Origin: a virus
IMG/VR virus record: IMGVR_UViG_3300037755_001058
Span: 27,854 to 91,853 of that record
Strand: one strand, 5' to 3'
Length of the DNA stretch: 64,000 nucleotides
Shown: in pieces, positions 2,234 to 44,795 of the stretch
How the letters are laid out: each line of letters opens with the position of its first letter
Numbering within the stretch: position 1 is the stretch's first letter
Translations under genes and position numbers: made by a program
The notes under the pieces: model-generated
The model's database searches: none
What the model saw: only the letters and a program-made list of their open reading frames with translations
Told to the model about the DNA's origin: nothing

Positions 2234-3013
2234 TTGAACGTTCAGGCCTGCGCCCCAAATGGTATCGATCTCGTCGACCTGCCTTCGGACCCTCAGGCCG
2301 ATATGATCTCTCGCCAGAGGCGCTTCCAGGCTCGGGTATACGGAGAAGCCAAGCTGGCAGAGTTGCGCGATTTCGGCTCATCACGGCGCTGTGACGTACG
2401 GGCCGTGTTGCATCACCTAGACATGGGTGGTCAGGAGTGCTCCGAGGCCTGGGACATGGTCGAGGGTGGATGGAAACACCACAAGACCAATCCGCACGAT
2501 CCTGACAAGCTCGAACTCATGATGGAGCTCGTCGATATCATGTGTTTCGCGCTGAACACGTACATCTACATGGGGGGTCAGCCTGAATCGGAACTCGTGG
2601 CGGCGGCCGTTGCCAGGAGCAAGGAACAGATGCGATACCCGAAGATTGGCCTCGACGAGGCATGGGTCATCGGGGCATCGAGCTGGGAGAGGAACGGCCC
2701 GAAGATGCGAGCCCTGTACGATCATGGCCGCGGTAGCCATGGGCGGGAGTGGACCAAGGAAGCCGCGACGCGCATCAACTTCCTCAGGGCACAGTTCTTC
2801 GACTCAGCAGCAACCATCAGGTACGGTCTGTCGAGGATGACCAAGGCCGAGCGCGAGACGTTTCCGCCGGCGTCCGGTTATGTCTACATCCAACTCGTTC
2901 CGTGGATCTGCGGTGCGGTTCAGGCGATCCCTGGAATGGGACTACAGGACCTGTACTCTGCCTTCGTGAAGAAGGACCAGATCAACAATGAGAGGCAAGA
3001 TGCAGGCTATTAG
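2234..3013 (+). CDS. Dimeric all-alpha dUTPase/dCTPase (dUTPase_2 / T4 gp56-like NTP pyrophosphatase)
   Basis: ECSEAWD...WKHHK, ELVDIMCF and terminal KKDQINNERQDAGY motifs; GGAGG before the TTG start. Confidence 0.8.
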   Translation: MNVQACAPNGIDLVDLPSDPQADMISRQRRFQARVYGEAKLAELRDFGSSRRCDVRAVLHHLDMGGQECSEAWDMVEGGWKHHKTNPHDPDKLELMMELVDIMCFALNTYIYMGGQPESELVAAAVARSKEQMRYPKIGLDEAWVIGASSWERNGPKMRALYDHGRGSHGREWTKEAATRINFLRAQFFDSAATIRYGLSRMTKAERETFPPASGYVYIQLVPWICGAVQAIPGMGLQDLYSAFVKKDQINNERQDAGY

Positions 3014-4211
3014 CCTGGGGTACCAATCGCATCCGTTGGACGACCAGTTCTCTGCGATCACGGTTCGTTTGAACGAGGCGTCCGATGAGCACACAGCTCT
3101 CGGGACATGCATCTTCGCCGGAGGATTTTCCTTCGGAATGGAAGAGGCCGGGTTCACGGTGGCCGGTCATCTCGAACTTCCGGACCTGGCCCTCGGGTCT
3201 CACACCTCCAAGCAGAGGTGGCCGGTTGCCGTAGCCAGTCTCGATCTATGGAAGGAGTACATCGATCAGCTGCGGGATAAGGACATCGTTCCAGATGTAT
3301 TCTACGCCAATCCACCTTGCGTTGCTTACGCCGGTACTGGGAAGCACGATGGAACGATGGATAGTCGTATGTGCTATACCAGGTACTGCGCGTACGATGC
3401 AGCCATGAGACTTCAGCCTGACGTCTGGATGTGGGAGCTGGTCGACGGAGTCATGCGAGACCGAGGATTTCTCGATGCGATGGCGTTCCGAGCGAAGTCC
3501 CTCGGGTACAGGTGCTACGCATTCCTTACATCATCGGCTATCCATGGTGGATACCAGGACAGGCGTAGATTCCACTTCGTTGCTAGCCGGTTCGAGCTAG
3601 ACTTCGAGGATGTGTGGGCCAACGAGCCCGTTCCTCGTAGGACCGTGCACACCCTCTCAGAGGCGTTGGCGTCGGTGCCTGCAGGTTCTACCAACCACGA
3701 GACCGTGTATAGGGGAGCATTCCGATCGATCTTCCCGTTCTGCCCCCCGGGAATGCACCTTCGGGATGTGTCTGATGATGTCATGCGTGAGCACTACCGT
3801 CCACGTGGTACTGCGTGGACAGGCACGGGGAGACCTGGGTTCTCACACACGCGTGCGAGGATGGACCGGCCATCCCCTAATGTCCTCGGAGGCCATACGA
3901 TAATCCACCCCATCGAGAACAGGTACCTCACACCTCGTGAGTGCGCCGCTATCATGGGGTTTCCCCATGACTACGCCTTCAGCCACGGTGCTATGGCGTA
4001 CGCTGAGATAGGCAGGGGGTTGTGCACCCACAACGCCGCGTTCCTGGGGAGGGTAGTCAAGAACGCTCTTGAGAGGCGCGTGCGTACGGTGCCGACCAGG
4101 GTTGACGACTCCTGGATGACAGTGGTAGACTGGCGCCGGAGGGCCAAGCCCCTTCGGCTGAAGATGACCGAAGCCGAAATCGAGGCTTGGTGGAGTGAGC
4201 GAGTTTCGTAA
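3000..4211 (+). CDS. C5-cytosine DNA methyltransferase homolog with atypical cofactor-binding motifs (candidate carboxymethyltransferase)
   Basis: Motif IV PPC (Cys at 3318), motif VI WELV, motif VIII QDRRRF, motif IX RYLTPRECAAIMGFP, motif X YAEIGRGL; start could be 2988 or 3000. Confidence 0.85.
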   Translation: MQAISLGYQSHPLDDQFSAITVRLNEASDEHTALGTCIFAGGFSFGMEEAGFTVAGHLELPDLALGSHTSKQRWPVAVASLDLWKEYIDQLRDKDIVPDVFYANPPCVAYAGTGKHDGTMDSRMCYTRYCAYDAAMRLQPDVWMWELVDGVMRDRGFLDAMAFRAKSLGYRCYAFLTSSAIHGGYQDRRRFHFVASRFELDFEDVWANEPVPRRTVHTLSEALASVPAGSTNHETVYRGAFRSIFPFCPPGMHLRDVSDDVMREHYRPRGTAWTGTGRPGFSHTRARMDRPSPNVLGGHTIIHPIENRYLTPRECAAIMGFPHDYAFSHGAMAYAEIGRGLCTHNAAFLGRVVKNALERRVRTVPTRVDDSWMTVVDWRRRAKPLRLKMTEAEIEAWWSERVS

Positions 4212-5190
4212 CACAATAACGTACTCCACCAGCCGCGATCGCATCCTTAGATCGTGTCCCAGGAAGTACTGGTACCACGTGTACGCATCTTGGCGCGGAT
4301 GGTGGAGGCGTGGCAAGCCTCCGACTGATAGACGCGCAGAGGATACGTACCAGGCCAGGTTCTTCGACAATATCCCTGCCTTAACTGGTAGGATTGTGCA
4401 CGACCAAGCGGCTAGGATGTTGAGAGGTGCTCAAGAGGGACGTCGGTGGGTGGACGCAAATGGCGTTGGACAGACGCTTCTGAGAAACACTCGATCTGAT
4501 GCAGAGCACCGACTAAATGTGGCCAGGGGGCGTCGCTACGTCAACCCTAAGGTCAATACCAGACTCCTGGAGTTCGAGCTGGGGGGCGAGGTAGACGACT
4601 TCGATTTTTTTGATCGGGTACGAACGAAGACTCTGTCCATCGTTTCTCCGGATGAGTGCTGGAACGGAATGGAGGAACGAAGGAATCTGTTCCTCCATGC
4701 CATCACCAATGGGAAGAGCATCGTCCTAGTGGAGGACCTCGTAACATATCACGTCAACGGCGTGCAGGTCTGGTTGCAGGTGGACATGATGATGAGGTCT
4801 GACCACGATCCAGTGCATGACTGTGTGATCGTGGACTGGAAGACTGGTCGCCCAAAGCCTGAAGATGTCCATCAGGCAGAACTGTACGGTCACTGGGCGT
4901 GGATGAAGGGTTGGACCGGAGCTCAGGTGATCATGGCGTACCTAAAGAACGTTGACTCGGTGGAGCTCAGAGCCATCGAGATGAATCGTCACAGAGTGGT
5001 AAGTGCCGAAGCCAGAATCGCCAGGTTCATAGACGATATCCGGTCTCGCATCGTTGATGGCGATATTTTGAGGAACGAGCCGATAGAAGAGAGGTTCGAA
5101 GCCATTGGCAGCCCGGTTGGATGCGCTGTATGCGAGTTCCAGGCGATCTGCGGGGCTGACGGAACGAAGCCGAGCTGGGTGGACCGTTGA
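4195..5190 (+). CDS. PD-(D/E)XK exonuclease, Cas4/AddB-like with a 4-Cys Fe-S staple
   Basis: SCPRKYWY, G..VH, VDMM...IVDWKTG, QAELY, CAVCEFQAIC. Confidence 0.8.
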   Translation: MSEFRNTITYSTSRDRILRSCPRKYWYHVYASWRGWWRRGKPPTDRRAEDTYQARFFDNIPALTGRIVHDQAARMLRGAQEGRRWVDANGVGQTLLRNTRSDAEHRLNVARGRRYVNPKVNTRLLEFELGGEVDDFDFFDRVRTKTLSIVSPDECWNGMEERRNLFLHAITNGKSIVLVEDLVTYHVNGVQVWLQVDMMMRSDHDPVHDCVIVDWKTGRPKPEDVHQAELYGHWAWMKGWTGAQVIMAYLKNVDSVELRAIEMNRHRVVSAEARIARFIDDIRSRIVDGDILRNEPIEERFEAIGSPVGCAVCEFQAICGADGTKPSWVDR

Positions 5191-5222
5191 TGGAAGTCGT
5201 GGTAAGTTAGGCTGTCGGAGGT

Positions 5223-6482
5223 TTGATGTACCCATCCGAGACACTCAAGCGGAACTGGTTCGCCCGGGAAGAGATCCAGGAGGTCCTGCGAGGTCTGGGA
5301 CTTCCAGTGGCGATGGACAGCACACACGTCGTAGTGGCCGGCGTTGGTGATCTCACCAACTGGCTCGCCGCGTGTAGCGACGATCATGTCGCCGGTCTCC
5401 TTGGGATGACGGAGAGGTGGACTACCGCATTCAGGAATGCGTCCGCTCCGTTCTCTGTGCGACACCTCTCCTCTCCGGGTGTGTCGTTCAGGCACGGGGG
5501 ACGGGCCGCGCTTCTCGATGGCGCGTGCATGTCGGTGACGTTCCCGAGCAGCGGTGCGGCATCGGATGGACCCATCGCATACGTCGTCCCGGTGCGGAAG
5601 CAGATGTTGAACACCCGCGCCGAGTGGGTGGAGCACGTGGCTCTGGTGCCGAAGAGTGCGTTCGGCCAGTGGACAGCGCTCTCGGGCGCCGTGGACATCG
5701 TCCAGCGCGAGATGAACGCGAGCTCACTCACGCTGCGCTGCTTCAACGGCCCGGATGAGCGCATCCAGCCCATGAAGCTCGACTCCATCATCATGGAGTC
5801 CGGCCTCAAGGCTTCGGTCGTCGATGATGTGCTTGGGTTTCTCGGCAGGCGAGATGCGTTCGTATCTCGTGGACTTCCGTGGACCAGGAAGTACCTGTTC
5901 AACGGACCCCCGGGTACGGGCAAGACGAGTCTGGCCAGGTGGATGGCGACCGAGCTCGGCCTGCCGGCGTACACGTTCGACTTCACGGATCGGTTGGCCG
6001 ACGGTCGTGATCTGAAGTACTTCATCGGCTGGGTGTCCAGGCAGGCTCCGGCTTTGGTCATCCTCGACGACTTCGAGAAGGTGTTCGGCGGGGACAACGC
6101 TACCGGCATCACCAGGCACGCACTTCTGACGATGATGTCTGGGATGGGTAGCCTGGACGGGCTGGTGTTCTCGGTCACCTGCAACTCCACCACCCCGTTC
6201 GACGGACCGATGAGGCGCAGGTTCGACGCCATCTTCGACGTCCCCCTTCCCGCTACGGAGGAGCGCCGAGTGTACCTCCACAGGATGCTCGATTCCGAGG
6301 GGATCTCGGGAGACTCCGTGGTGCGCCTGGCCGGACAGACCGATGGGTGGTCGTTCGACGACCTGCGAGGATTGGTCGCCACGGCACTCGGCCTGTCGGT
6401 GACGGCAGGTACGATCGCCGAACGAGACCTCTCCAGGGCGATGCGGGTCATGGAGCAGCGCCGGATGCAGCCGCTCGAGTGA
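5223..6482 (+). CDS. AAA+ ATPase (BCS1/CDC48-like ATPase domain)
   Basis: Walker A GPPGTGKT, Walker B LVILDD, TCN and RRRFD second region of homology. Confidence 0.85.
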   Translation: MMYPSETLKRNWFAREEIQEVLRGLGLPVAMDSTHVVVAGVGDLTNWLAACSDDHVAGLLGMTERWTTAFRNASAPFSVRHLSSPGVSFRHGGRAALLDGACMSVTFPSSGAASDGPIAYVVPVRKQMLNTRAEWVEHVALVPKSAFGQWTALSGAVDIVQREMNASSLTLRCFNGPDERIQPMKLDSIIMESGLKASVVDDVLGFLGRRDAFVSRGLPWTRKYLFNGPPGTGKTSLARWMATELGLPAYTFDFTDRLADGRDLKYFIGWVSRQAPALVILDDFEKVFGGDNATGITRHALLTMMSGMGSLDGLVFSVTCNSTTPFDGPMRRRFDAIFDVPLPATEERRVYLHRMLDSEGISGDSVVRLAGQTDGWSFDDLRGLVATALGLSVTAGTIAERDLSRAMRVMEQRRMQPLE

Positions 6483-6490
6483 GGTGAGCA

Positions 6491-8230
6491 GTGGCAGACG
6501 AGTATGCTCGCGAGGATGTTGCCATCATCCTCGAGAAGACGAACCTACAAATCGGGTACATGGAGGGCGAGGTTCCTGGGTCTCCACCCCAGGAGGACCC
6601 GTTCGTCGTCGGAGCTGGTCAGATCGTCGAGCCACCGGTGAATCCTACGCGCGCAATGCGCGCGGTCAAGTCGAACGGCCATCTTGCTGCGGTGTGTGCA
6701 GTAGTGGCGGAGGGGTGTGCCGGAGTCCGGTACGAGATGGTTCCCAGGTTCAGATCGAAGTTCGTTCCAGGGATGGAGAACTTCGACGCGGCCAGGCCGG
6801 ATACGTGGCCCCCTGAGGCTCGAGAGCAACGGCGGAAGCTCCAGGTACTCGTGCAGGCGGGCTTCATTGGAAGAGGCGCGGAGTCCATCCGGTCCGGGTT
6901 CAAGGACCAGGAGCTCGATAGGATCATCCTGGGGTGGGGTGGAGTCCAGGTCCGGCGAGAACCGACGGTGCGCGGTGGTCCATCGGTTCCGCCACCGCGA
7001 GGTCTATCACGGTTCGAGGCCTGCAACGCTCGGTTCACACATCCAGATAGAACTGCCACCATGACACCGGTGCCGGTGGCGTTGGAAGATGGTACGATCT
7101 GGTGGGTAGAGGAACCACGATTCTTCAGGAAGCTGCGAGTGCAGCTGGCCAACGGCCGCTACACCTGGTTCAAGGAATACGGTGATTGGCGGTCGATGTC
7201 GTCTCGTACGGGCAATCGTTCTACGGGAGCAAGGCGCAAGCCTTCCATGGTTCCTGGCCAGCCAGGAACGTACACCCCCGGACAGGTTCCGGACGGACAT
7301 CCGGCTGCGATCGAGGTGATGCACTGGAGGACCTCGTTTCCAGGAGTGTACCCGTACGGATGGTCGGCGTGGCATAGCGAGATGCGAGCGGCCGATGCGG
7401 CCGATGAGCACATCGGCCTCGTTCTTCAGTACCTCAAGTCTGGATTGCACTCGCTGGTGTTGGCTGCTAGCACCAGACCGTTCGACCAGGCTGCAGCACA
7501 GGCTGCCATCCAAAAGGTCGATGAGCTCGGTCGTGGTCGGAAGGGGTTAGGTTCCTTGGTCACTCTGGCCTTGGTGCCATCAGACAGCGACGCCAGGTCG
7601 CCGGCTGCGATGTTCGACAATGGGACTGCCGATACTGGGAAGCTGGTCCTCCATGAGATCAGTACGAAGCTTCCCGATGCGCTCCTCAGCAAGGACGGCC
7701 TTCAGGAATCCACATCAGTACGGTTCAGCAACGCAGAGCGGATCCCTGGGCTGTTGCTGGGACGGTCAGAGACGTACAACTTCGCCACGGCGTCAGCAGC
7801 ATGGGCGGTGGTAAACCGACTGAGGTTTGGCCCTAGTCACGAGGAGCGCGAGTCGTTCCTCGATAGGTTCCTGATCGAGATGGGGATCACCTTCTGGCGC
7901 CTGGACGTAGTCTCACCTGAATGGGATGACAAGGAGCCATTGTCTGGCATTGCCTCCGTGGCCGGTCAGTACGGTGGTATGTCGGCCAACGATGCCATGA
8001 TGATGTTGAGCGATGTCCTCAACACCGAGTTCAAGCCGTCGAAGGACTGGTGGGGCGACGTTCCATTCGCGCTCGTCAACGCCATCATCAACGCAACGGA
8101 CCCTTCGGGGCTGGCCAAGCTGATGGGAGTTGATCTTCCTGAAGACTTCAAGAACGTCGTTCCGCAGGTGGCCACACTGGCTGCCATGGTAGAGGAGCGT
8201 CTTACGGCGCTCGAGGCTCAGGTTCCGTAG
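6491..8230 (+). CDS. Phage portal protein (PBSX/HK97-like)
   Basis: HLAAVCAVVAEGCAG N-terminal helix, D..ILGWGGVQV, and RIPGLLLGRSETYNFATASAA, typical of PBSX-type portals; no other portal candidate in the window. Confidence 0.75.
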   Translation: MADEYAREDVAIILEKTNLQIGYMEGEVPGSPPQEDPFVVGAGQIVEPPVNPTRAMRAVKSNGHLAAVCAVVAEGCAGVRYEMVPRFRSKFVPGMENFDAARPDTWPPEAREQRRKLQVLVQAGFIGRGAESIRSGFKDQELDRIILGWGGVQVRREPTVRGGPSVPPPRGLSRFEACNARFTHPDRTATMTPVPVALEDGTIWWVEEPRFFRKLRVQLANGRYTWFKEYGDWRSMSSRTGNRSTGARRKPSMVPGQPGTYTPGQVPDGHPAAIEVMHWRTSFPGVYPYGWSAWHSEMRAADAADEHIGLVLQYLKSGLHSLVLAASTRPFDQAAAQAAIQKVDELGRGRKGLGSLVTLALVPSDSDARSPAAMFDNGTADTGKLVLHEISTKLPDALLSKDGLQESTSVRFSNAERIPGLLLGRSETYNFATASAAWAVVNRLRFGPSHEERESFLDRFLIEMGITFWRLDVVSPEWDDKEPLSGIASVAGQYGGMSANDAMMMLSDVLNTEFKPSKDWWGDVPFALVNAIINATDPSGLAKLMGVDLPEDFKNVVPQVATLAAMVEERLTALEAQVP

Positions 8231-8304
8231 TCCCGAATTGAGCGGAGCTACGAGACTTGATGCAACCTACCATGAGTGTTATAACTCTTGTGGGAGGAGC
8301 AAGG

Positions 8305-9252
8305 ATGGAAGGATTGATCTGTCTACGAACTGGACAGCTCCGCAGAGGTTCTGACGGACAGTCAGAGCCAGTCGATCCCGATGGAATCGAGCACATGTGG
8401 GTGCCCATCATCGAGGGTGAGCCAATGTTCGTTCAGAACGTGGGCTCTACCTCTAACCCGCACGACCGAACCGACGATGGAAGGTTCGACAGATCGCACC
8501 TCTCCCCAGAGAGGGCATACAGGATCGGTCGCGATTACTTGGCGCACTGTATTCGGTACGGTTTCCCGATGAAGGTGATCAAGGAGCACTTCGGGGCTGG
8601 GGTTCGCATCCTGGAGATGGGGTGCGGGAAGGAGATCCCGTTGTTCAGGACGCTCACCTGCGACCATTCCGCCACGAAGTACTACAAGCCGAGTCAGTAC
8701 TGCGGAGTCGACCTGAATCCCATCAAGTACCATCCTCGAGTGACAGGCATCGAGAGCAAGGTTCTCTCGCGCGTCAACTGCGTGACCGAACCGGAGAAGG
8801 TGCCAGATTGGACGTTCGATCTGGTCTTGTCCTTCGAGGTCGTCGAGCACATGGACAAGCCCGACGGTGACAGGTTCCTCGATGCCATGGTGACCTTCGC
8901 CAAGCGCAAGGTCGATCGTGAGGGCAAGCCAGGAATGATCCTCCTGTCGACACCCGTGAACAACGGAACCATCGCCAAGAACCACATCTACGAGTGGCGG
9001 CGCTCGGAGCTGGAACGAGCCTGGACCAGGCGTGGGTGCAGAGTGCTCGAGCAGTACGGTACGTTCAGCAACCTCAGGGACCTGTTCGCGGCTATGGACG
9101 ACACCGAGATCGAGGTGTGGAATCGCATGGCGGCCTACCACAGTCCGAACACGCTGTCATGCGTGTTCAGCGCCATGCATCCTGAGGCCGCTAGGAACGT
9201 GGCCTGGAAGATCGAGGTTGGTGAGGATTCACACCCTCTGGATGGACGATGA
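8305..9252 (+). CDS. Class I SAM-dependent methyltransferase
   Basis: HCIRYGF, ILEMGCG, GVDL, FDLVLSFEVVEHM, ILLSTP..NHIYE; GGAGG upstream of ATG 8305. Confidence 0.85.
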   Translation: MEGLICLRTGQLRRGSDGQSEPVDPDGIEHMWVPIIEGEPMFVQNVGSTSNPHDRTDDGRFDRSHLSPERAYRIGRDYLAHCIRYGFPMKVIKEHFGAGVRILEMGCGKEIPLFRTLTCDHSATKYYKPSQYCGVDLNPIKYHPRVTGIESKVLSRVNCVTEPEKVPDWTFDLVLSFEVVEHMDKPDGDRFLDAMVTFAKRKVDREGKPGMILLSTPVNNGTIAKNHIYEWRRSELERAWTRRGCRVLEQYGTFSNLRDLFAAMDDTEIEVWNRMAAYHSPNTLSCVFSAMHPEAARNVAWKIEVGEDSHPLDGR

Positions 9253-9464
9253 GCAAAGGTACGACGTGTCTGGCGTGCCGGCACTGTTTCATGGAGCCGG
9301 ACGATGACTTCTGCTGCGGGCATCCAGATGCCGGAGAGGTGGGGACGTACGTCAAACGCGCAGCGGTGGAGGGGGGACACTGCGGCCCAGAGCGGCCGAA
9401 GTTCGAGCAGCACCCGCTCCGCACCGCCGACGGCTACATGAAGCCGATCGAGCGTACCACATGA
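9249..9464 (+). CDS. Small Cys-rich (possible Zn-binding) hypothetical protein
   Basis: CLACRHC...CC...C; ATGA overlaps with both neighbouring genes. Confidence 0.65.
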   Translation: MSKGTTCLACRHCFMEPDDDFCCGHPDAGEVGTYVKRAAVEGGHCGPERPKFEQHPLRTADGYMKPIERTT

Positions 9465-9880
9465 ATTACTACCTCGCAACCAAGCTCGAACGTGCCGAAG
9501 AAGCACGCGCAGTGCACTTCAACCTGGTTTCTCTCGATGTAGGCTTCAAGTGTACCTACGACTGGACAACCCATGGTTCGGTCAAGAACACCTCCAGGAT
9601 CCGTCTGGCAGAGGTTGGACTGAACGAGACCAAGGGTGTCCTCAGTGCTGACGTGGTGATCGTTCTTCTTCCTGGAGGGCGAGGCACCCACGCCGAGCTC
9701 GGAATCGCGATCGGCGCTGGCAAACGAGTGATCCTTCATTCGAAGACCGGCAATGAGTTCGAGGTCAACGACGGGACCTGTGCGTTCTACTGGCAGCCGC
9801 TGTGCGAGAGGGTCGTGGGAGACCTAACCGCGCTCGTCAAGTACCTCGCCGAGCCGGCCGTCGGGATGATCGTCAGGTGA
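9461..9880 (+). CDS. Nucleoside 2-deoxyribosyltransferase-like / (d)NMP N-glycosidase (DNPH1/MilB fold)
   Basis: YYLA, YDWT, GVLSADVVIVLLPGGRGTHAELGIAIGAGKRV (catalytic Glu motif GT.aElG.A). Confidence 0.75.
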   Translation: MNYYLATKLERAEEARAVHFNLVSLDVGFKCTYDWTTHGSVKNTSRIRLAEVGLNETKGVLSADVVIVLLPGGRGTHAELGIAIGAGKRVILHSKTGNEFEVNDGTCAFYWQPLCERVVGDLTALVKYLAEPAVGMIVR

Positions 9881-10758
9881 ACCCAGTCATCATCATCGAG
9901 GGTCCGGACGGGGTGGGCAAGACCACCCTGTGCGATGCCCTCGCACAGAGGTTTTTGGGCTCGTGTACGATTGTTCATTCCGTTCACTATGGCCCACCAC
10001 CCGGTGATGAACCAACCGCCCTGTACTACTGGGACGAGGTGGACAACATCCTGGGCCTGGCGAAGTCCGGTCCAGTGATCGTCGACAGATTCCATGTTGG
10101 TGAGATGGTCTACGGCCCGATCCTCCGGGGTGATGCTGGGATGAGCCTCGACGAGGCTTGTGTCATCGACATGCGACTGCAGGCCATCGGCGCCATGATG
10201 TGTCATTGTAGGCTATCATCCACAGACCTATCGTCCAGATTGCTGTCCAGGGACGGCGGCCTTCCGGATTCTGCTAGCGGCGCCGCGCTGGGCCACAGCG
10301 AAGCCGTTCGGGCAGCGTTCTTTGGGATGACCAACGGAGTGCTTCCGTCGTCTTGGGAGCAGCTCGATATGACCTGGTACCCAGCACAGCTGGTTCCACT
10401 GGTGGCGCTGTCGTCGATCTCCCTGAGCACATTCGGTGCGGAGGTTGGGGTCATCGGCAATGTCAGGTCTCCACAAGTGCTCATCAAGGTGCCGAACTCT
10501 GACATGGATACCCTCTCGAGGGTAGTTCGAGGTTTGAGGTTGGCGGGGATGGTACGGGTCTCTGCCATCGAATATGATGACACCGATCTGAACTACACAA
10601 CCGTATCTCGATCAGTAGCCATGGGGTTGTCACTGCATCGTACCCTCATGGAAAGGGGGTTCAAGCTCCCGTCTGTCGTGTCCACCGACGCGACTCCGGA
10701 AGATATCGCCGAGGCAGTACGAACCGCCGTGGTGGCACAGCCCAGTCCGGAAGGATAG
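9877..10758 (+). CDS. dNMP/thymidylate-kinase-like P-loop kinase with an extra C-terminal domain
   Basis: IIIEGPDGVGKTT and VIVDRFHVGEMVYGPILRG; GTG 9877 overlaps the upstream stop. Confidence 0.8.
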   Translation: MNPVIIIEGPDGVGKTTLCDALAQRFLGSCTIVHSVHYGPPPGDEPTALYYWDEVDNILGLAKSGPVIVDRFHVGEMVYGPILRGDAGMSLDEACVIDMRLQAIGAMMCHCRLSSTDLSSRLLSRDGGLPDSASGAALGHSEAVRAAFFGMTNGVLPSSWEQLDMTWYPAQLVPLVALSSISLSTFGAEVGVIGNVRSPQVLIKVPNSDMDTLSRVVRGLRLAGMVRVSAIEYDDTDLNYTTVSRSVAMGLSLHRTLMERGFKLPSVVSTDATPEDIAEAVRTAVVAQPSPEG

Positions 10759-10778
10759 ACACATGGGTGAGGTGAACG

Positions 10779-11033
10779 ATGAAGTTCAACGAGACGGCCA
10801 TCAAGGCGCTCCCGGAGCGAAACCAGAGAACGATCATGAACCTCCTCAAGGAGTTGGAGGTCTCCCCGGAGCGGGGGACCTTCGTGATCAGTCGGGAGAT
10901 CCTCGACCGGATGACCCCCCGGCAGCTCAGGACGCTCAGGCTGATGCGGCGCGTCCACGACGCGATGGACGTTCCGGTGGTGACACGAGGCCGTTCATCA
11001 ATCAAGCGGAAGGAGTCGACCGCGACGGAGTGA
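10779..11033 (+). CDS. Hypothetical protein
   Basis: GAGGTG SD; host-like codon usage; TGATG coupling to the next gene. Confidence 0.65.
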   Translation: MKFNETAIKALPERNQRTIMNLLKELEVSPERGTFVISREILDRMTPRQLRTLRLMRRVHDAMDVPVVTRGRSSIKRKESTATE

Positions 11034-11989
11034 TGTCATTCGGCTCGATGGATGAGCTCTTCAGGTTCGCCGTCTGGAAGTGCATCGAGCATGGACGGAT
11101 GACCAAGCCGAGGGGCTTTTCGGTTCTGGAGATCGCCACTCCCACCGTGCTCACCTTGCGGGACGTCCACAGGCCGTTCATCCACTCGCCTCTGCGACGG
11201 CCCAACTACCGATTCGGCCTGGTAGAGGCCGCATGGATCGCAGCCGGATCCGATCGTCTGGCCCACCTTTCCGCCGTGAACTCGCGGATGGCACGGTTCA
11301 GCGATGATGACTCCACGATGTGGGGTGGGTATGGGCCGCGCGTGATCGGTCAACTCGACCATGTCATCGAGACACTGCGGCGGGACAACGACAGTCGCCA
11401 GGCGGTCGTGACGACATGGCGACCCATGGTTCCACCGGTGGTGGGCAAGTCTCAAGGCCCGATTCGATCGGCTGGCCTGATGGCCACAGGTTCTGAGACG
11501 GTCAGTCCTACATGGGATGGCTACTCCTGGCGATCAAAGGACGTCCCGTGCACCGTAGCATGGCACTTCCAGTTGCGGAACGGCGGACTGGCTCTGACCG
11601 TATTCATGCGGTCTAACGACGTGTGGCTGGGGTTGCCGTACGACGTGCTGAGCTTCACCACCATCCAGCGTGTGGTTGCTTCTGCACTTGGTGTGAGACT
11701 CGGTGCGTACCACCATGTGGTCAGCAACCTTCATCTGTACCAGAAGAACTACGAGGCTGCTGTCAGTCTCATGGGGGAGACCGTCTCCAACGAGACTGTG
11801 GTGATGCCACCATTCGATGACCTGTTCCTCGGTGGCAGTAGTGATTCGATGTCGACGATCTTCAACACGACTCTCAACGGCTCTCTCATCTTGATGTCCA
11901 AGCCCGGGATGCAGCCGTTCATCTCGGCGGTGATTGGATCCGATGAATGGGACGACTTCCGAAAGCTCATGGCTGCTAACGGAAGGTGA
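11033..11989 (+). CDS. Thymidylate-synthase-fold pyrimidine C5 transferase, predicted dCMP-specific (hydroxymethylase/methylase)
   Basis: FSDD...YGPR, DSRQAV, KDVPC (catalytic Cys), MRSNDVWLGLPYD (Asp at the E. coli ThyA N177 position), NLHLY. Confidence 0.85.
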   Translation: MSFGSMDELFRFAVWKCIEHGRMTKPRGFSVLEIATPTVLTLRDVHRPFIHSPLRRPNYRFGLVEAAWIAAGSDRLAHLSAVNSRMARFSDDDSTMWGGYGPRVIGQLDHVIETLRRDNDSRQAVVTTWRPMVPPVVGKSQGPIRSAGLMATGSETVSPTWDGYSWRSKDVPCTVAWHFQLRNGGLALTVFMRSNDVWLGLPYDVLSFTTIQRVVASALGVRLGAYHHVVSNLHLYQKNYEAAVSLMGETVSNETVVMPPFDDLFLGGSSDSMSTIFNTTLNGSLILMSKPGMQPFISAVIGSDEWDDFRKLMAANGR

Positions 11990-12001
11990 TAGGATCTCAG
12001 T

Positions 12002-14389
12002 ATGCTCGACGCCTCCTACAGGATCTGTTGGTCTATCGACTCTTGGGTATCAACCCTTCGAGAGGCTCAGGATTCGTGGATAGTTGGGTATGACTTCGAA
12101 ACCTGTCCTGACAGGTTCCATGCCGACTACCACCCGAAGAAGGGTCGCGATGGCAAGCCGAGTAAGTGCATCCCCAGCGCTCTTCGTCCTGAGGATGGAG
12201 CAAGAATCGCGGGCATAGCCATTTCATGGCTCGACACCAATGACCGAATCAGGTCCGCGTACGCCCCCATCAGGCACGATCCACGGTTCGCGGGTGGTGA
12301 TCAGCTTGACCCATTGCAGGTCTGTAAGGCATTCAGCGACTTCATCGCCGACAGGCCTGCTGATAGGTATCTGGTTGTTCACAATCTCATGATGGAGCTT
12401 AGTTGTCAGCTGGCCGAGAATATCGTGTGGCCGAAGGAGGGGCAACTTCACGACATTCAGATCGCGGCCAGGGTTCTCAACCGGGGAGTAGGATTCCAGG
12501 AGCTGATCGGCCTCAAGCCACTCCAGGCCGAGGTGTTGAAGCGAGACATGGGGTCCAAGAACGACTTGGATCGTTGGCTGAAGGCCCATAGGTTCAAGCC
12601 TGGTCGTGACATCTGGAGAGCCCCTGCACCATTGGCCGGTTGGTACGCTCAGGATGATGCCCGTGACACTCTCGAGATCTGTCTGAAGTGGTGGAAGCTG
12701 ATTCATCAGCCACCTACCAGATGGTGGTGGCACAGGGCACCAGATAGGTCTCAGCGCCTGGACCTGTACGAACTCGAGATTCGTGCGGCTATTGAAGCCA
12801 CAATCTCATGCATGCGTGGGACACGGTACGATGCACCCTTCTGCCGGCGTCAAGGACGCGCGGCCGAGGTACTGCAGTCCATCGCTCGCGACTGGATCCG
12901 AGGATACCTGGGAATGCCGGCCCTCAATCCAGGAAGCCAAACCCAGCTCAGAGGTGTTCTGTTCGGAACTCGGTTCAACTTCGAAGTCTCGCTCGAGCAC
13001 ACGACGGAGAGCTTCAAGAAGCTACCAGAGCGTGAACAGGCATCGACAATAGCTGGGCATGGCAAGGCACCTCTGGTGAGTTACGCCTCTCTCGATGTTG
13101 ATGCCCTCAAGTACTACGAGTCCAAGTACATAGAACACGCGGACCTGCTGTTCATGCTGGCTGTGTACCGTAAGTGCTCCACAGCCATATCGTGGTTCGA
13201 TGACAGGGTCCTGCAGTTCGGCGTTCGTGGATCTCCAGATCCATGGTGGAATTCAGACGCTGGTTCGTACCTGAACTTGATGTTCCATCGTCTGAGGACG
13301 GTAGGGACCGGCCCGGGCCGGATGAGCAGTTCAGACTACAACGCTCAGCAGGTGCCGAAGCGACTGAAGATGCTGCTGAACGCAGCTCGGCTATTCCGTA
13401 TCCTGGAGGAGGTCATGCACCCGTCCAGGCTAAACGGAATCATGTCGATTCTGATTAGAGTACCGTGTAAGGAGGGCGACGAGGCGAAGGTCCTTGGACT
13501 GCAGCCTGGTGACGAGGTGGTGGACTTCTCCATCAGGAGAATGTTTATCTCCAGGCCGGAGTTCAACCTCAGGACGTTCGACCTCTCACAGGTCGAGATG
13601 CGTGGGTTTGCCCATTACACGGGTAATCGCCTACTGTGTAACGGGTACGGGCCACCGTTGGCTAACGTCGCGGCCTTAGCAGAGTTAGACGCCGTCCAAG
13701 CTCTCATGGAGGAACGTGAGCCTGATTGGTCGAATGTCGATGTTGAACGCCATGTTAGGATGGAGGAGAACGAGTTCGACATTCATGGATTCGTCAGTGA
13801 CGAGCTGAGCATCTCACGCAAGGGTGGAAAGGGGATCAACTTTGGGCTCGTCTACGGAATGGGTGAAAAGAAGCTGGCTCGAGGTCTAGGGTGGTCACCT
13901 GGCGACGGAAAGCTGTACCTAGCCAGATACCATGCCAAGTTTCCAGAGATCAGGCAGATGCAGGGAAAGATCGTCATCGCCCTGAGGAGCAGGGGATACG
14001 TCTTCGATCCATTCGGCAGACGTTACTACCTACCGGTGGCCAGAGCGTACGTAGGCTTGAACCGCCTGATCCAAGGGTGGGCTGCCACTGCGTTCAAGGT
14101 GGGATTCGTCAGGACCTCCGAGGTGTTCAGGTCACCAGGGTTCGGTGGTGGGTCTATCGATTCTGTCACTGGACTCCGTCGTAGTGATGGAGCCAGAATC
14201 CTCACCTGTATCCATGACGAGCAGATGGGTGAGATCCACAGGTCGCTCGATAATGTCAGGACTGACTGGGTGGTCAGGTCGTGCATGACGAACCTGTTCG
14301 GATTGAACGTACCGCTAGCATCGTCATCTGAACGTTCCGACGGCCCGTGGGACAATGCTACCGGTGTCTCGGCTAAACTACCAGTATGA
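12002..14389 (+). CDS. polA: Family A DNA polymerase with 3'-5' exonuclease
   Basis: ExoI YDFET, ExoII HNLMMEL, ExoIII YAQDD, motif A DLSQVEMR, motif B RKGGKGINFGLVYG, motif C IHDE. Confidence 0.93.
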   Translation: MLDASYRICWSIDSWVSTLREAQDSWIVGYDFETCPDRFHADYHPKKGRDGKPSKCIPSALRPEDGARIAGIAISWLDTNDRIRSAYAPIRHDPRFAGGDQLDPLQVCKAFSDFIADRPADRYLVVHNLMMELSCQLAENIVWPKEGQLHDIQIAARVLNRGVGFQELIGLKPLQAEVLKRDMGSKNDLDRWLKAHRFKPGRDIWRAPAPLAGWYAQDDARDTLEICLKWWKLIHQPPTRWWWHRAPDRSQRLDLYELEIRAAIEATISCMRGTRYDAPFCRRQGRAAEVLQSIARDWIRGYLGMPALNPGSQTQLRGVLFGTRFNFEVSLEHTTESFKKLPEREQASTIAGHGKAPLVSYASLDVDALKYYESKYIEHADLLFMLAVYRKCSTAISWFDDRVLQFGVRGSPDPWWNSDAGSYLNLMFHRLRTVGTGPGRMSSSDYNAQQVPKRLKMLLNAARLFRILEEVMHPSRLNGIMSILIRVPCKEGDEAKVLGLQPGDEVVDFSIRRMFISRPEFNLRTFDLSQVEMRGFAHYTGNRLLCNGYGPPLANVAALAELDAVQALMEEREPDWSNVDVERHVRMEENEFDIHGFVSDELSISRKGGKGINFGLVYGMGEKKLARGLGWSPGDGKLYLARYHAKFPEIRQMQGKIVIALRSRGYVFDPFGRRYYLPVARAYVGLNRLIQGWAATAFKVGFVRTSEVFRSPGFGGGSIDSVTGLRRSDGARILTCIHDEQMGEIHRSLDNVRTDWVVRSCMTNLFGLNVPLASSSERSDGPWDNATGVSAKLPV

Positions 14390-14399
14390 GGAGGACGCA

Positions 14400-14795
14400 G
14401 TGGCAGAAGGATCTGAGGATCTGGAGCGGAACAAGGAAGGCAAGAAGTGGAAGAACGACAAGCAGAGCCGCCGCGAGAACCATGTCATCATCGAGGAGAG
14501 GACGCTGCTGACCTTGGTGAAGTCGGGTAACGTCGACATCAGGGTCGAAGTCAAGCGTCACATGACCAAGAAGAATCAGATCCCGCAGAACTTCATCGAC
14601 ATTCGTGAGTGGTGGTACGCTCAAGGCCCGGACGAACCGCCCGTCCCGAAGAGGGCCGGGGTGATGCTACACCGTGAGCACATGGGCCGCATCATCGAGG
14701 CCATCTTGAAAGAGTTGGCCGTAGGTGAGATCAGCGAGGAGCACCTCGAGAGCATCTCGGTCGAGATAGAGAGGATCGGTGCCACCGAACCCTGA
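14400..14795 (+). CDS. PC4-like ssDNA-binding protein
   Basis: FIDIREWWY...PVPKRAGVML matches the PC4 signature; GAGGAGG before GTG 14400. Confidence 0.75.
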   Translation: MAEGSEDLERNKEGKKWKNDKQSRRENHVIIEERTLLTLVKSGNVDIRVEVKRHMTKKNQIPQNFIDIREWWYAQGPDEPPVPKRAGVMLHREHMGRIIEAILKELAVGEISEEHLESISVEIERIGATEP

Positions 14796-15180
14796 AACCA
14801 AGATCACGGTGACCATAAGGAAGCACCTCGAGACTCGAGGTGCACACTTCGTGAAGCTGAGCGACAGTTTCACCCGTGGAGTTCCTGACGCCCTGGTCGT
14901 TACCAACCGACCTGTCATGGTAGAATTCAAGGTCGACAGGCTTGTTGGTACCGATATGATGAGGACGTATCGATCTCTAGGGTTGTCAGGCGCTCAGGAC
15001 CACCACATCAAGGCCCTGCATCGACGGTGTCTGAACTCGGCGGCTGTTGTCACCAACACCGCCCGTGAGAATCGACTTCGGGTGTGGGTCCCACTCAACC
15101 CGCACGACGAGAAAAACGAGACGTACATCTGCATCGCCGAAGGATGGAGGGAGTTCGATCTGTTCATGGGAGTCGCATGA
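14779..15180 (+). CDS. VRR-NUC nuclease / Holliday junction resolvase
   Basis: PETKI...RGVPDALV...MVEFK...LSGAQ. Confidence 0.8.
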   Translation: MPPNPETKITVTIRKHLETRGAHFVKLSDSFTRGVPDALVVTNRPVMVEFKVDRLVGTDMMRTYRSLGLSGAQDHHIKALHRRCLNSAAVVTNTARENRLRVWVPLNPHDEKNETYICIAEGWREFDLFMGVA

Positions 15181-15653
15181 TGGACAGCCCACCAGACCTT
15201 AGGGTGCTGTTGGTGGAGCTCGCCCGGGAGCTCAATCGGATTCGTCCTGAATCCGTTCTGGGTGCGGAGCTGGAGCGAGTATCCACGGCCAAGAACACGT
15301 TGTTAGTGCTCAGTCGTGTTCTAACGGCCATGGCCGTTCGGGCCGGCGTATCGAAGGATGCGGTTGACAGGGCCGTGGCCAAGGCCCGTCGGGCTAACGA
15401 ACCCAAGCAGGGTGACATGTTCGTTCCTGTTGTGGTCAGCCCGGTTGCTGAGACGTTGACGACTACCACGGATTGGTACATCATCGCTGAGGTTGACCTG
15501 GTGCTTCTCAAGCACCGAACGGAACTTCCAGACTGGTTCGTTAACGATTTCTGGCCAGGCTGCATACGGCGCGCGGCTCAGGGCCTGAGGTTGACTGATC
15601 GAGAGCGAGCAATTGCCGAGTACCAAGCCAGTAAGGCCAGGGGGGAACGGTGA
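15177..15653 (+). CDS. Hypothetical protein
   Basis: Fills the gap between neighbours with ATGA/GTGA overlaps. Confidence 0.6.
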   Translation: MMDSPPDLRVLLVELARELNRIRPESVLGAELERVSTAKNTLLVLSRVLTAMAVRAGVSKDAVDRAVAKARRANEPKQGDMFVPVVVSPVAETLTTTTDWYIIAEVDLVLLKHRTELPDWFVNDFWPGCIRRAAQGLRLTDRERAIAEYQASKARGER

Positions 15654-16114
15654 TGAGGCCATCTTGGGACGAGTACTTCATGCACATGGCGGTGATGATC
15701 TCCACCAGATCGACGTGTGACCGTCGCAGGGTGGGGTGCGTACTGGTGTCGCCTCAGTGGAATGTGGTGAGCACCGGGTACAATGGCTCGGCTCCTGGAA
15801 CTGAACACTGTGACGATACGGGTCACATCATGCACGATGGGCACTGCGTTCGTACCATCCATGCCGAACGCAACGCCATCGCCCATGCTGCCAAGCGCGG
15901 AGTGGCTACCGACAGGACTACGGCGTACATCACCACGATGCCGTGTCCCACGTGCATCACCGATCTTGTTGCAGCAGGGATCAAGTCGGTGGTCTTCCTA
16001 GAAGGCTACCACGACGAGGAGGATCAGGTCACTCGTCGCTTGGCCGCGGCGAGCGGTGTCGTGCTGTACGAATACGACGGGAGAAAGACATGGGAAAGTC
16101 CGATCGACCGGTGA
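15650..16114 (+). CDS. dCMP deaminase (ComEB-like)
   Basis: RPSWDEYFM, RSTC.RR.VG, TGYNG, HAERNA, PCPTC. Confidence 0.93.
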   Translation: MMRPSWDEYFMHMAVMISTRSTCDRRRVGCVLVSPQWNVVSTGYNGSAPGTEHCDDTGHIMHDGHCVRTIHAERNAIAHAAKRGVATDRTTAYITTMPCPTCITDLVAAGIKSVVFLEGYHDEEDQVTRRLAAASGVVLYEYDGRKTWESPIDR

Positions 16115-16758
16115 GAATAGCTCTCATCGGAGCATCAGGTACTGGCAAGACCACGCTGGCAACCCACATCTCCACCACGTTCGGGATTCCCATGAACCCA
16201 CACGGTTCCAGGTCCACAGCCGCCGCCATGGGTTTCGGTAGCCCGTACGACGTGGATAGGGCATCGAAGCAGGCGTACAAGGCAGCCCTCATGGAGGGGT
16301 ACGACCCCAAGTCGGCTGCACAAATCTCCATGATAGATTGGGCCACCTACGGCCGTGGTGGTACGGTACGACCGCTGTTCCAGACCGGTCTTCAGAAGAC
16401 GAAGATAGAATGGGAACGTGCCAACCTCCCCTTCGTCACGGATAGAACCACTATCGACGACCTGTGCTACGCCCTGCTACACTGCGTCGAGGTCGTGAAC
16501 TATGAGTTTCTAGAGGCGGCTCGTGCGCACATGGCCATCTACGATCTGGTGGTGTACTGTCCCGCCTACGCATTCATCAACCTGGGTGACGACCCTGCGA
16601 GGCTGTCCAGTCGAGCGTACCATACCACATTCGACATCATGCTGTCTGGGTTCATGCACTCGTGGGACATCATGCGAAATGCGTTGGTGCTGGACACTTC
16701 AGACCTGAACTGGCGGTGTGAGGCTACTGAACTGGCTGTACGTGCCATCGCGTCCTGA
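16111..16758 (+). CDS. P-loop nucleotide kinase-like protein (AAA_28/NadR-type)
   Basis: RIALIGASGTGKTTLA, FVTDRTTIDDLCY. Confidence 0.75.
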   Translation: MRIALIGASGTGKTTLATHISTTFGIPMNPHGSRSTAAAMGFGSPYDVDRASKQAYKAALMEGYDPKSAAQISMIDWATYGRGGTVRPLFQTGLQKTKIEWERANLPFVTDRTTIDDLCYALLHCVEVVNYEFLEAARAHMAIYDLVVYCPAYAFINLGDDPARLSSRAYHTTFDIMLSGFMHSWDIMRNALVLDTSDLNWRCEATELAVRAIAS

Positions 16759-44500: not shown

Positions 44501-44795
44501 GGAGGATCACGTTCGGATGCAGGCAGCTGCCTGCGCGTTCTGCTGCATGTCGGTCAGTAAGACGATCAACGTACCGGTGACAGCATCGCGCGAAGAGATC
44601 GCAAACGCCTACCGACTGGCGTACGAACTGGGTGTACCCGGTACATCGGTGTACAGAGACCAGAGCAAGCCACACCAGGTCCTCTCAGCTCTGGAATGTC
44701 CGAGCGGAGAGTGCAAGGTCGGTCTCGACGACGATGTCAGCACGATGGATCGCCCTGCTGCCTTTCAGGAAGCCCTGGGACTCATCGGCAAGTAA
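41514..44795 (+). CDS. nrdJ: Class II (adenosylcobalamin) ribonucleotide reductase containing an intein
   Basis: PSSPQLWN, SCF, GGFG, NMSVRV.DEF, AW.HADPG, NPC[intein]SE, SCNL.SVNL, VAPTGT, SVSKTIN, C-terminal CPSGEC; no beta subunit nearby. Confidence 0.88.
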   Translation: MNSYFVTPYEENLFTTRYQDPGNRDGEQTWEDAFGRVVEAVVPDPILKMTLLGMMSRGEVLPSSPQLWNFGAIGRRYPMNGGSCFTGFMGDTLEDFRAADQHAESVYVASGGFGLLLDTVRPRGCMIKHCSEGAMGSMCSGGPAKRVEGTTGYITGSGRARGALMFQQSIWHPDILEFMLAKRPSSLGFMDDWEANARSVLLAKRMDNLDTLIAKYHRYAMQKDWPDSFTVIVDTGPIAVKEAMAAGIIRLNELGQLIPVVTDWSAAIPREANRDWDLPMQNCNMSVRVPDEFYDAIDADANWVLHWFSPDPPKDDENPWTKTDCLGDGLREIADGTVIIVSDDMTRADPVYVSDNSEIDYKYGVVITTWEGLVQNLSPNRNQWRDTEYSRFYRTKILPTLQNLKGPIKARQLWDILIDNAWNHADPGIINCGTYERYQPVDSTVYGPRLSNPCCLVGETLVDTDEGRIRIDELVRRADRGEALPNAFCYDLLDRRPSVRPITHAWLSGHDEEVFEVVTDKGIAFRGTAHHPVLLKNGSYVKICDLAPGMALRKIHRCVHPSGYVYITGRKDFIEHRLVYSEISETPQDQMEGLDVHHDDEDNQNNAFWNLKLVDSTEHRSQHSSGSGNPRFKHVGTKVLAEFYTEVVNSKSARGRPRKRPVTPQSWNLHVIRTGRTDIPKSSSYGIQGMGWNDFCSMIESHLTDLVDGENHKVVSIRYVGLSDVYNITVKDHHNFGISSFTDRTSDSIIVKNSEYVNSPGGSCNLISVNLRAAAEAGGDFLHVVSEFAKVASRYIIGAMDYSRAPVGFIDEMTRKHFRTVGVGFMGLAEALIHSGLRYGSEEAQQFTAAAMSEIALTAWETSFEMANEGLPKPLGWNPKRMISIFGDRYLNAIGYDLPQSHLLRWRRLAIRTAAGEWATNTVMTSVAPTGTIAQIAGFMMSRAAGCSISVTSGVEPVFAPITGRQDNSGSTTTSHDLWSTEVGTDILITAASASAEDHVRMQAAACAFCCMSVSKTINVPVTASREEIANAYRLAYELGVPGTSVYRDQSKPHQVLSALECPSGECKVGLDDDVSTMDRPAAFQEALGLIGK
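42876..43772 (+). mobile_element. Intein (299 aa) with an HNH homing endonuclease
   Basis: Block A CLVGETLV, block B GTAHHP, HNH EHRLVY...VHHDDEDNQNN..WNL, block F VYNITV...HNF, end IVKN followed by Ser. Confidence 0.88.

Follow-up and report, generated by a model that had tools for sequence, protein, structure and literature searches.

A predicted pre-replicative cytosine modification operon with two S-adenosylmethionine-fold accessory enzymes in an uncultured phage

In phage T4, a modified cytosine is built before replication: the pathway comprises the gp56 dCTPase, the gp42 dCMP hydroxymethylase, the gp1 dNMP kinase, the cd deaminase, and the alpha- and beta-glucosyltransferases. A gene cluster resembling this pathway is located at positions 2234-16758 of a 64,000-nucleotide stretch of viral DNA, which is called the window here and which represents the last 64 kb (positions 27,854 to 91,853) of the 91,853-bp virus record IMGVR_UViG_3300037755_001058. 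The record comes from an uncultured phage of roughly 92 kb; it is ~85% complete with linear ends according to CheckV, its GC content is ~60%, and the DNA is present in sediment metagenomes. One sequencing run contains the complete stretch and may be where it came from; no RNA run was listed with it. The best explanation of the region is that it is a nucleotide-metabolism and replication arm in which a modified cytosine is built before replication, as in T4. Pre-replicative synthesis of 5-hydroxymethyl-deoxycytidine (5hm-dC) is the best-supported core of this explanation, the product being predicted from conserved residues. The overall reading is that 5-hydroxymethylcytosine (5hmC) is made in this manner and is tailored by two S-adenosylmethionine (SAM)-fold enzymes; the chance that this reading is right is considered to be about even.

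The original prediction listed nine genes in this region. All of them were found by profile matches, on the + strand, although the NDT-like gene gave only a weak match. As in T4, a nucleoside triphosphate (NTP) pyrophosphatase, a ThyA-fold enzyme with Asp at the position of Escherichia coli N177 and an acidic residue at that of L143, a dNMP kinase, and a dCMP deaminase are placed beside a DNA polymerase. Unlike T4, the window phage has no glucosyltransferase of the searched families, its pyrophosphatase has the dimeric dUTPase fold, its dTMP would be derived from ThyX, and its operon contains two SAM-fold enzymes. The ThyA homolog is only ~24% identical to gp42.

Similar modules have been found in metaviromes. 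The families Thymidylat_synt, dCMP_cyt_deam_1, PRA-PH, dUTPase_2, AAA_28, Nuc_deoxyri_tr2, and Thymidylate_kin were enriched in experimentally cytosine-modified metavirome contigs by MetaGPA (PMC8670742, supplement). The MetaGPA clusters with a 5hmC carbamoyltransferase (PMC8670742) share with the window the Asp-type ThyA module, the same enriched Pfam set, and a non-glycosyl candidate for the second step on the 5hmC hydroxy group; in the window, however, this candidate is a methyltransferase (MTase), and no carbamoyltransferase is present. The core pathway is therefore of a known kind, found in T4 and in the MetaGPA modules, and the suggestion that the whole system was undescribed does not extend to it. 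This suggestion stands for the accessory enzymes: neither the Hen1-like MTase nor the ThyA-linked C5-MTase-like family with NPPC and Arg signatures is described in the searched literature.

Residue signature and operon of the ThyA-fold enzyme

The ThyA homolog (10763..11989, core 11033-11989; + strand; PF00303, 7.8e-18) is a candidate dCMP C5-hydroxymethylase. Its top match in the PDB is the CMP hydroxymethylase MilA (4e-24). It was aligned with E. coli ThyA, T4 gp42 (5hm-dCMP), SPO1 gp29 (5hm-dUMP), and PaMx74 ThyA. The catalytic Cys (C146 in E. coli) is kept, with the VPC motif aligned. The position of N177 is occupied by Asp (LGLPYD versus LGLPFN in E. coli), as had been noticed originally, which points to cytosine rather than uracil as the base. 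The position of L143, three residues before the catalytic Cys, is Asp in the ThyA homolog, T4 gp42, SPO1 gp29, and MilA, Asn in PaMx74, and Leu in E. coli. The position of H147 is Thr in both the ThyA homolog and the T4 enzyme and Pro in PaMx74. In other words, D-V-P-C-T in the window enzyme corresponds to N-V-P-C-P in PaMx74, and the signature of the Xp12/PaMx74 methylases (non-acidic L143 and Pro at H147) is absent. By the rule given in PMC13326640, an acidic residue at L143 admits water, which leads to the hydroxymethyl product.

Two other activities were considered for this enzyme and rejected. Replacement of D169 by Asn marks the 5-hydroxy-dCMP synthases of the RB69 gp48 type (PMC13326640). 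In the ThyA homolog D169 is kept (RSND), and this identity was rejected on that ground. The combination of Ser167 and Arg126 is the deoxyribo type, whereas Ala and Lys at these positions, as in MilA, are the ribose-preferring, CMP type (PMC5175136). Both S167 and R126 are kept in the window enzyme (RSND and DSRQ motifs), where MilA has Ala176 and Lys133; action on CMP was rejected because of them. MilA and MilB, from mildiomycin biosynthesis, have counterparts in the window: no solved structure matches the ThyA homolog better than MilA, and a MilB/NDT-like gene is found two genes upstream of the ThyA gene. They differ in the ribose-preferring pair, and the NDT-like match lies below the Pfam threshold.

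The key residues are almost invariant among relatives. Of 202 ThyA homologs in the retrieved loci, 187 could be resolved: Asp was found at the N177 position in 186/187, at L143 in 179/187, and at D169 in 186/187. In database searches, the clade of the ThyA homolog was nearer to the MilA, SPO1, and ViI-type hydroxymethylases than to PaMx74. It should be mentioned that the stretch of 274 bases from the kinase stop to the ThyA core (10759-11032) has no stop codon in the ThyA frame and would code for an acidic, Pro-rich segment of low complexity. The first 90 residues of the ThyA open reading frame (ORF) form a low-complexity extension that may be left untranslated. Several relatives carry comparable long N-terminal ThyA extensions.

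The surroundings of the ThyA homolog were compared in three sets of loci. An alignment-based scan of IMG/VR gave 80 loci with Asp-type ThyA homologs (ThyA-D; identity 30-48%), the ORFs of which were clustered. The reverse tests were made with loci chosen by the Hen1-like MTase alone, of which 72 had enough flank, and with 80 loci chosen by the NPPC motif of the C5-MTase-like enzyme, of which 40 had full flanks. In the ThyA-selected set, one order was recurrent: the class I MTase (family 6) or the C5-MTase-like enzyme (family 14), a PRA-PH-type NTP pyrophosphatase, the Tmk-like kinase, ThyA-D, the dCMP deaminase, and Pol A. The same order was found in dozens of distantly related IMG/VR contigs, and the grouping of these genes is therefore not due to chance. 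The co-occurrence in related phages that had been proposed as a check was thus observed. The deaminase is present in 60-61 of the 80 loci, and Pol A is syntenic with the module in 39. Where at least 5 kb of upstream sequence was available (63 loci), 38 loci had the MTase only, 8 the C5-MTase-like enzyme only, 4 both, and 13 neither. In two relatives (P0011 and P0018), a kinase domain homologous to the Tmk-like kinase is fused to the ThyA homolog; these natural fusions tie the kinase to the ThyA product. From the ThyA residue signature, the fusions, and the conserved operon, it is very probable that the phage produces dCTP modified at C5 ahead of replication, as had been proposed.

The window phage itself has few near neighbors. 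Megablast with the region as query gave no match among 50,697 phage records, and a single-protein scan of viral contigs for close relatives likewise gave none. Its Pol A is only ~25% identical to any counterpart in the 50,697 deposited phage genomes. The sole close IMG/VR relative available is locus L003. The Hen1-like MTase has only five matches among deposited phages, including Stenotrophomonas phage AXL3 and Pseudoxanthomonas phage PW916. The operon of AXL3, which is a cultured phage, consists of the MTase, the NTP pyrophosphatase, the kinase, ThyA, and the deaminase, and AXL3 also has ThyX. Of 37 restriction enzymes tried on AXL3 DNA, 35, all with G/C sites, failed to digest it, and cutting was seen solely with the two whose sites consist of A and T; the modification was left unidentified by the authors (PMC7504290).

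The pattern of AXL3 is compatible with 5-methylcytosine (5mC) as well as with 5hmC, and the product of the ThyA homolog has to be weighed accordingly. In PaMx74, 5mC has been reported to replace C fully (bioRxiv 2024.12.05.627091). If the window phage were of this Xp12/PaMx74 type, the ThyA homolog would be a dCMP methyltransferase, and the deaminase would turn part of the 5m-dCTP to dTTP. Its pyrophosphatase, Asp-type ThyA, dCMP-family deaminase, and Pol A correspond to the module described for 5mC phages and their mSCD deaminases, and 5mdCMP was the product of five of the seven ThyA homologs with a linked deaminase that were assayed (bioRxiv 2024.12.05.627091). However, Asp at L143 and Thr at H147 are the residues of T4, whereas PaMx74 has Asn and Pro, and the clade relationship described above also favors the hydroxymethylases. 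PaMx74 encodes dihydrofolate reductase (DHFR; frd) beside thyA, whereas no match to PF00186 was found in the contig, a criterion that is supportive and not strictly defining. Since the window phage has a separate ThyX, dTMP synthesis does not require the ThyA homolog, and a deamination route to dTTP would be unnecessary. The presence of ThyX together with the absence of DHFR fits a hydroxymethylase that leaves folate unoxidized. Complete replacement by 5mC is therefore considered quite improbable, and 5hm-dCMP is retained as the predicted product.

The two SAM-fold enzymes

Enzymes for a second step were searched by Pfam scans of all called ORFs and by six-frame family searches of the 91.8-kb contig. 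No glycosyltransferase (GT1, GT2, or TET-associated glycosyltransferase, TAGT), TET/JBP, carbamoyltransferase, or CmoA was detected. The absence of a glycosyltransferase, first noted for the window, thus extends to the whole contig, and the rest of the genome, where these families were to be sought, gave none of them. This leaves the two SAM-fold enzymes that had been named as second-step candidates, and both are tied to the pathway by genomic position (54/72 and 38/40 loci, as described below).

The first of these is a class I SAM MTase (8257..9252; + strand; Methyltransf_23, E=3.6e-8), for which the database gene call starts near 8395. Its family profile matched HENMT1 (5e-12), UbiG (2e-10), bacterial Hen1 (1e-9), and plant HEN1 (2.6e-7) in the PDB. 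In an alignment of 32 sequences, the motifs E-x-x-E-H, S-T-P, and H-x-x-E are invariant, and E150, E153, H154, and H199 align to IELIEH and DHKFEW of HENMT1. The two Glu and the His of E-x-x-E-H and the His of H-x-x-E correspond to the Hen1 metal ligands, and by this alignment all four are conserved in the phage MTase. The AlphaFold model (predicted local distance difference test score, pLDDT, 85.8) had human HEN1 (5wy0) as its top Foldseek match. By VIA, CmoM (Z 19.1) and ChlM (Z 18.8) ranked first, with many other class I MTases following ~2 units lower, and HEN1 had a Z of 16.3; the fold therefore singles out no one substrate. Identity as CmoA was rejected: BLASTP against SpCmoA gave E=36, and there was no match to TIGR00740.

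The number of viral contigs with a relative of this MTase is at least 365. In 54 of the 72 MTase-selected loci, ThyA-D is found a median of 1.2 kb downstream. Four of the exceptions were checked: two have ThyA elsewhere on the contig, and the contigs of the other two are only 38% complete. Other exceptions adjoin a terminase gene, or a pair of dUTPase_2 and C5-MTase genes. Within the clade of the window phage, the MTase is 54-76% identical, compared with 45-55% for ThyA. In five ThyA-D loci (L014:7885-8820 and the same position in L007, L009, L010, and L016), a protein of ~310 residues with a weak match to pyridoxal-phosphate-dependent enzymes (PALP) occupies the MTase position, next to the pyrophosphatase gene on its upstream side. 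Besides the MTase and the C5-MTase-like enzyme, this protein may be a third option for the accessory role.

The small-RNA 3'-terminal 2'-O-methyltransferases of the Hen1 group (human HENMT1, bacterial Hen1, and plant HEN1) resemble the phage MTase in that they are its best profile matches and share the metal-ligand motifs and the class I fold. The phage enzyme differs in being a stand-alone protein of 285-330 residues with a conserved N-terminal R-D-Y-x-A-H, with no Pnkp family among the Pfam matches of the contig, and in being placed in a deoxynucleotide-modification operon. The closest characterized relatives all methylate a hydroxy group, and the pathway would create one new hydroxy group; O-methylation of 5hmC is suggested by this correspondence. 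O-methylated 5hmC is thus the leading guess for the final base, and it is proposed by analogy. The literature search gave no relevant report of 5-methoxymethylcytosine in phages or as a natural DNA base, of Hen1 with hydroxymethylcytosine, or of an MTase beside a dCMP hydroxymethylase.

Another explanation would be plain replacement of C by 5hmC. In this case the MTase would serve RNA, perhaps in the protection of RNA 3' ends or repaired tRNA, and the C5-MTase-like enzyme would have its own task, for instance on host DNA or on C that was left unmodified. The hydroxymethylase signature of the ThyA homolog agrees with this explanation, known Hen1 substrates are RNA 3' ends, and some MTase loci have no ThyA nearby. 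In addition, non-glucosylated 5hmC or 5mC blocks many restriction enzymes, and the AXL3 result would need no second step. However, 75% of the loci in the independent selection have the MTase as an immediate member of the nucleotide operon, the MTase is more conserved than ThyA, and at least one of the two SAM-fold enzymes is present in 79% of the ThyA-selected loci. A role in RNA repair is also disfavored by the contig scans, in which no Pnkp or RNA ligase family was among the Pfam matches. Replacement by 5hmC without further tailoring is, on balance, unlikely, and tailoring by the SAM-fold enzymes remains the preferred reading.

The second enzyme (2988..4211; + strand; PF00145, E=3.8e-19) has the fold of C5-cytosine MTases. 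Motif I, which binds SAM, is intact, as are the catalytic Pro-Cys (Cys111) and the Glu of motif VI (Glu150). The canonical motifs IV, VI, and X of the orthodox enzymes are lost: PCV, ELV, and GR replace PCQ, ENV, and GN, in agreement with the original description of this protein as atypical. The Arg of motif X (Arg343) aligns with N304 of M.HhaI in a profile alignment and with R350 of SpCmoX in a direct alignment. These features are general in the family. In the NPPC-selected loci, the residue after the catalytic Cys is Ala or Val in 80/80, and the motif X residue, resolved in 67 cases, is Arg in 57, Lys in 5, and Asn in none. A ThyA homolog is present in 38 of the 40 full-flank loci, usually ~2 kb downstream, and has Asp at N177 in 60/60 resolved cases. 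This means that the family is almost obligately linked to dCMP hydroxymethylase operons, and the linkage is puzzling.

The closest precedent for such an enzyme is SpCmoX, a phage DNA C5-carboxymethyltransferase in which R350 binds the carboxymethyl group of carboxy-SAM (PMC12783734, Dec 2025). The CmoX/CmoA/CmoY system of Synechococcus phage S-B43 (PMC12783734, PDB 8YF3) has in common with the window enzyme the C5-MTase fold, the catalytic Cys, the loss of the Gln after this Cys, and Arg in place of N304. By analogy, the Arg-type homolog might use host carboxy-SAM to form 5-carboxymethylcytosine, and the class I MTase might methyl-esterify this product, as cmo5U is converted to mcmo5U in tRNA. 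The model of the C5-MTase-like enzyme (m46afe48c5e6b) matched 3g7u (Z 28.7), 8yf3 (CmoX; Z 27.7, root mean square deviation 2.9 over 291 aligned residues), and HaeIII (Z 27.3), which are effectively tied, and the two best VIA matches of the MTase model, CmoM and ChlM, are carboxyl methyl-esterifying enzymes. The family profile, however, scores HaeIII and HhaI above 8yf3; this ranking and the tied structural matches indicate that the C5-MTase-like enzyme is not a close CmoX relative. The window protein and all 80 NPPC-selected relatives have NPPC, not the CmoX-defining SPPC. Neither CmoA, an amide ligase, nor ParB is nearby, and an Asp-type ThyA operon is present in 95% of loci. CmoA is carried by 76% of CmoX contigs (PMC12783734); no SpCmoA homolog was found in ~240 related loci, and no TIGR00740 match in the contig.

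The MTase also argues against the carboxymethyl route. It keeps the Hen1 metal ligands, and it cannot depend on the C5-MTase-like enzyme, since the gene for the latter is lacking in 38 of the 63 loci and in the AXL3 locus as shown. Furthermore, full replacement by 5hmC would leave no C5 free for carboxymethylation. This route is thus considered very unlikely. CmoX is a published precedent for the C5-MTase homolog, although the family of the latter lacks two hallmarks of CmoX, SPPC and CmoA.

Several variants of the C5-MTase-like clusters were observed. The only close IMG/VR relative (L177, IMGVR_UViG_3300006928_000001, 71738-86988) has a second copy of the C5-MTase-like gene, 46% identical and far from the first, whereas the genome of the window has one. 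Some clusters also carry sugar-nucleotide enzymes or a TAGT-like segment. In a large subgroup, an unannotated protein of ~348 residues is found between the pyrophosphatase and the kinase (L197:8555-9601, L187:8406-9446, and L199:5722-6801), with a UDP-glucose dehydrogenase or NAD-epimerase nearby; these sugar-nucleotide genes suggest glycosylated hmC variants of the same operon. In L036:412-2739, the C5-MTase-like ORF starts with a partial TAGT match, which is either a real fusion or two ORFs merged in ORF calling.

Other genes of the region

The first gene of the region encodes a dimeric dUTPase-fold (all-alpha) NTP pyrophosphatase (2234..3013; + strand; PF08761, E=1.4e-8; phrog_173 NTP pyrophosphohydrolase, 2.8e-12), with a weak match to the dimeric dUTPases of Leishmania and Campylobacter. 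Its 3' end overlaps the start of the C5-MTase-like gene. From these matches it would be a dCTPase/dUTPase that drains the canonical dCTP pool. The cluster is then interrupted by genes without an obvious nucleotide role, which lie between the two MTase genes: a PD-(D/E)XK nuclease (4195-5190), an AAA ATPase (5223-6482), and a portal-like protein of 579 residues (6491-8230). The last has no Pfam or PHROG match. It was considered as a hidden transferase and rejected, because its language-model neighbors are portal proteins (score 0.97). A portal gene is thus placed inside the replication arm.

Downstream of the MTase, the ORF list contains a small ORF of 71 residues (9249..9464; + strand), for which there was no Pfam or PHROG match and no tblastn match in L003. 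It is followed by a protein of possible NDT/DNPH1/MilB-like N-glycosidase fold (9461..9880; + strand; PF05014, 23.4 bits with a cut-off of 28.8; phrog_12607, 2.5e-7). Its sole PDB matches are to MilB, a CMP/hmCMP hydrolase, at E ~0.6 over the GTHxE(L/I)G stretch (GTHAELG). Such a protein would clear an unwanted nucleotide, for example 5hm-dUMP. The Tmk-like dNMP kinase (9802..10758; + strand; phrog_761, 2.4e-13; P-loop GPDGVGKT) probably starts near 9877, and its substrate is predicted to be the modified dCMP.

The ThyA homolog is followed by the family A DNA polymerase, Pol A (12002..14389; + strand; PF00476, 7.3e-27), by the dCMP-deaminase-family enzyme (15650..16114; + strand; PF00383, 1.2e-25; phrog_174, 9e-47), and by a second P-loop kinase of the AAA_28 family (15943..16758; + strand; PF13521, 3.2e-9; phrog_2107, 1.2e-13). 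The deaminase is predicted to supply dUMP for ThyX or, alternatively, to deaminate a modified dC nucleotide. A role of either kinase as a DNA kinase of the 5-HMUDK type was considered; neither resembles any protein of the PaMx11 thymidine-hypermodification cluster, which is a weak test. Further downstream, as had been stated, are the flavin-dependent dTMP synthase ThyX (39982..41418; + strand; TIGR02170, 1.3e-21; PF02511, 2.5e-36) and the large subunit of ribonucleotide reductase with an intein (41514..44795; + strand; PF02867, 2.8e-54; Intein_splicing, 1.2e-5).

The product of 18959-21613 (884 residues, 65% identical in L003) resembles a fused type IIB (Topo VIII-like) topoisomerase, with a GHKL ATPase (HATPase_c) and a Top6A/Spo11-type Toprim domain. 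Ahead of the window, contig positions 1-27853 hold genes for a sigma-70-type factor, an SNF2-type helicase, a Toprim/MCM-like primase-helicase, and a Pam3 gp34-like protein. Pam3 gp33/gp34-like genes recur in distant ThyA-D loci.

Proposed pathway and its meaning

The residue signatures and the gene linkage were observed, and the chemistry of the following steps is what they would imply. In the first step, the dimeric-dUTPase-fold pyrophosphatase would convert dCTP (and dUTP) to the monophosphate. With methylene-tetrahydrofolate as donor, the ThyA-fold enzyme would then attach a one-carbon unit at C5 of dCMP, giving 5-hydroxymethyl-dCMP, which the Tmk-like kinase and the host NDP kinase would raise to the triphosphate. 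As the fourth step, the phage Pol A would incorporate the modified dCTP in place of dC, while the deaminase and ThyX would make dTMP separately. The Hen1-like, metal-dependent O-methyltransferase would most likely methylate the sole new hydroxy group, on the nucleotide or on DNA, to form 5-methoxymethylcytosine. The C5-MTase-like enzyme, with Arg in its cofactor pocket, would most likely transfer a non-methyl group or act on DNA that contains 5hmC. Taken further, the two enzymes might represent two undescribed 5hmC-tailoring families: one for O-methylation, the other for covalent catalysis by Cys at C6, or use of a charged SAM analogue, on 5-substituted DNA, with either or both present in a given phage. 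This last proposal is tentative and is considered doubtful rather than likely.

Several points weigh against such a pathway. The rules for L143 and H147 are correlations from few characterized enzymes. The known substrate of Hen1 is the 2'-hydroxy group of RNA 3' ends, a cis-diol; a deoxynucleotide has no cis-diol, and hmC as a substrate of the Hen1-like MTase is thus an extrapolation. About a quarter of the MTase loci have no ThyA nearby, and five of them adjoin a terminase gene. A DNA C5-MTase would find no free C5 if every C were already 5-substituted; in other words, the C5-MTase and replacement by 5hmC cannot both be placed in a single simple pathway. Gene order in phage modules is inherited, so that synteny alone overstates functional linkage. 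Since the contig is ~85% complete and many of its ORFs are unannotated, an unrecognized transferase could exist. Finally, several Asp-type ThyA homologs beside deaminases make 5m-dCMP (bioRxiv 2024.12.05.627091). The DNA of this phage probably holds a modified cytosine.

Modified bases decide which restriction and CRISPR defenses a phage escapes. Phage base modification has also led to tools for epigenetic sequencing, namely glucosylation of 5hmC, carbamoylation, 5mC-selective deaminases, and CmoX. From the present analysis, two enzyme families emerge whose active sites carry clear signatures and whose genes are closely bound to dCMP hydroxymethylase operons; a reaction has been assigned to neither. 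The MTase family occurs in AXL3, a cultured and publicly described phage with unexplained restriction resistance. If the MTase O-methylates 5hmC, the product would be a new natural base, and the enzyme would be a handle to label or protect 5hmC. Activity of the Arg-type C5-MTase-like enzyme on or beside 5hmC would extend the chemistry of C5-MTases beyond methyl and carboxymethyl transfer. If the proposal of two 5hmC-tailoring families is true, AXL3 and the window phage would carry new non-glycosyl cytosine hypermodifications, spread over several hundred viral contigs.

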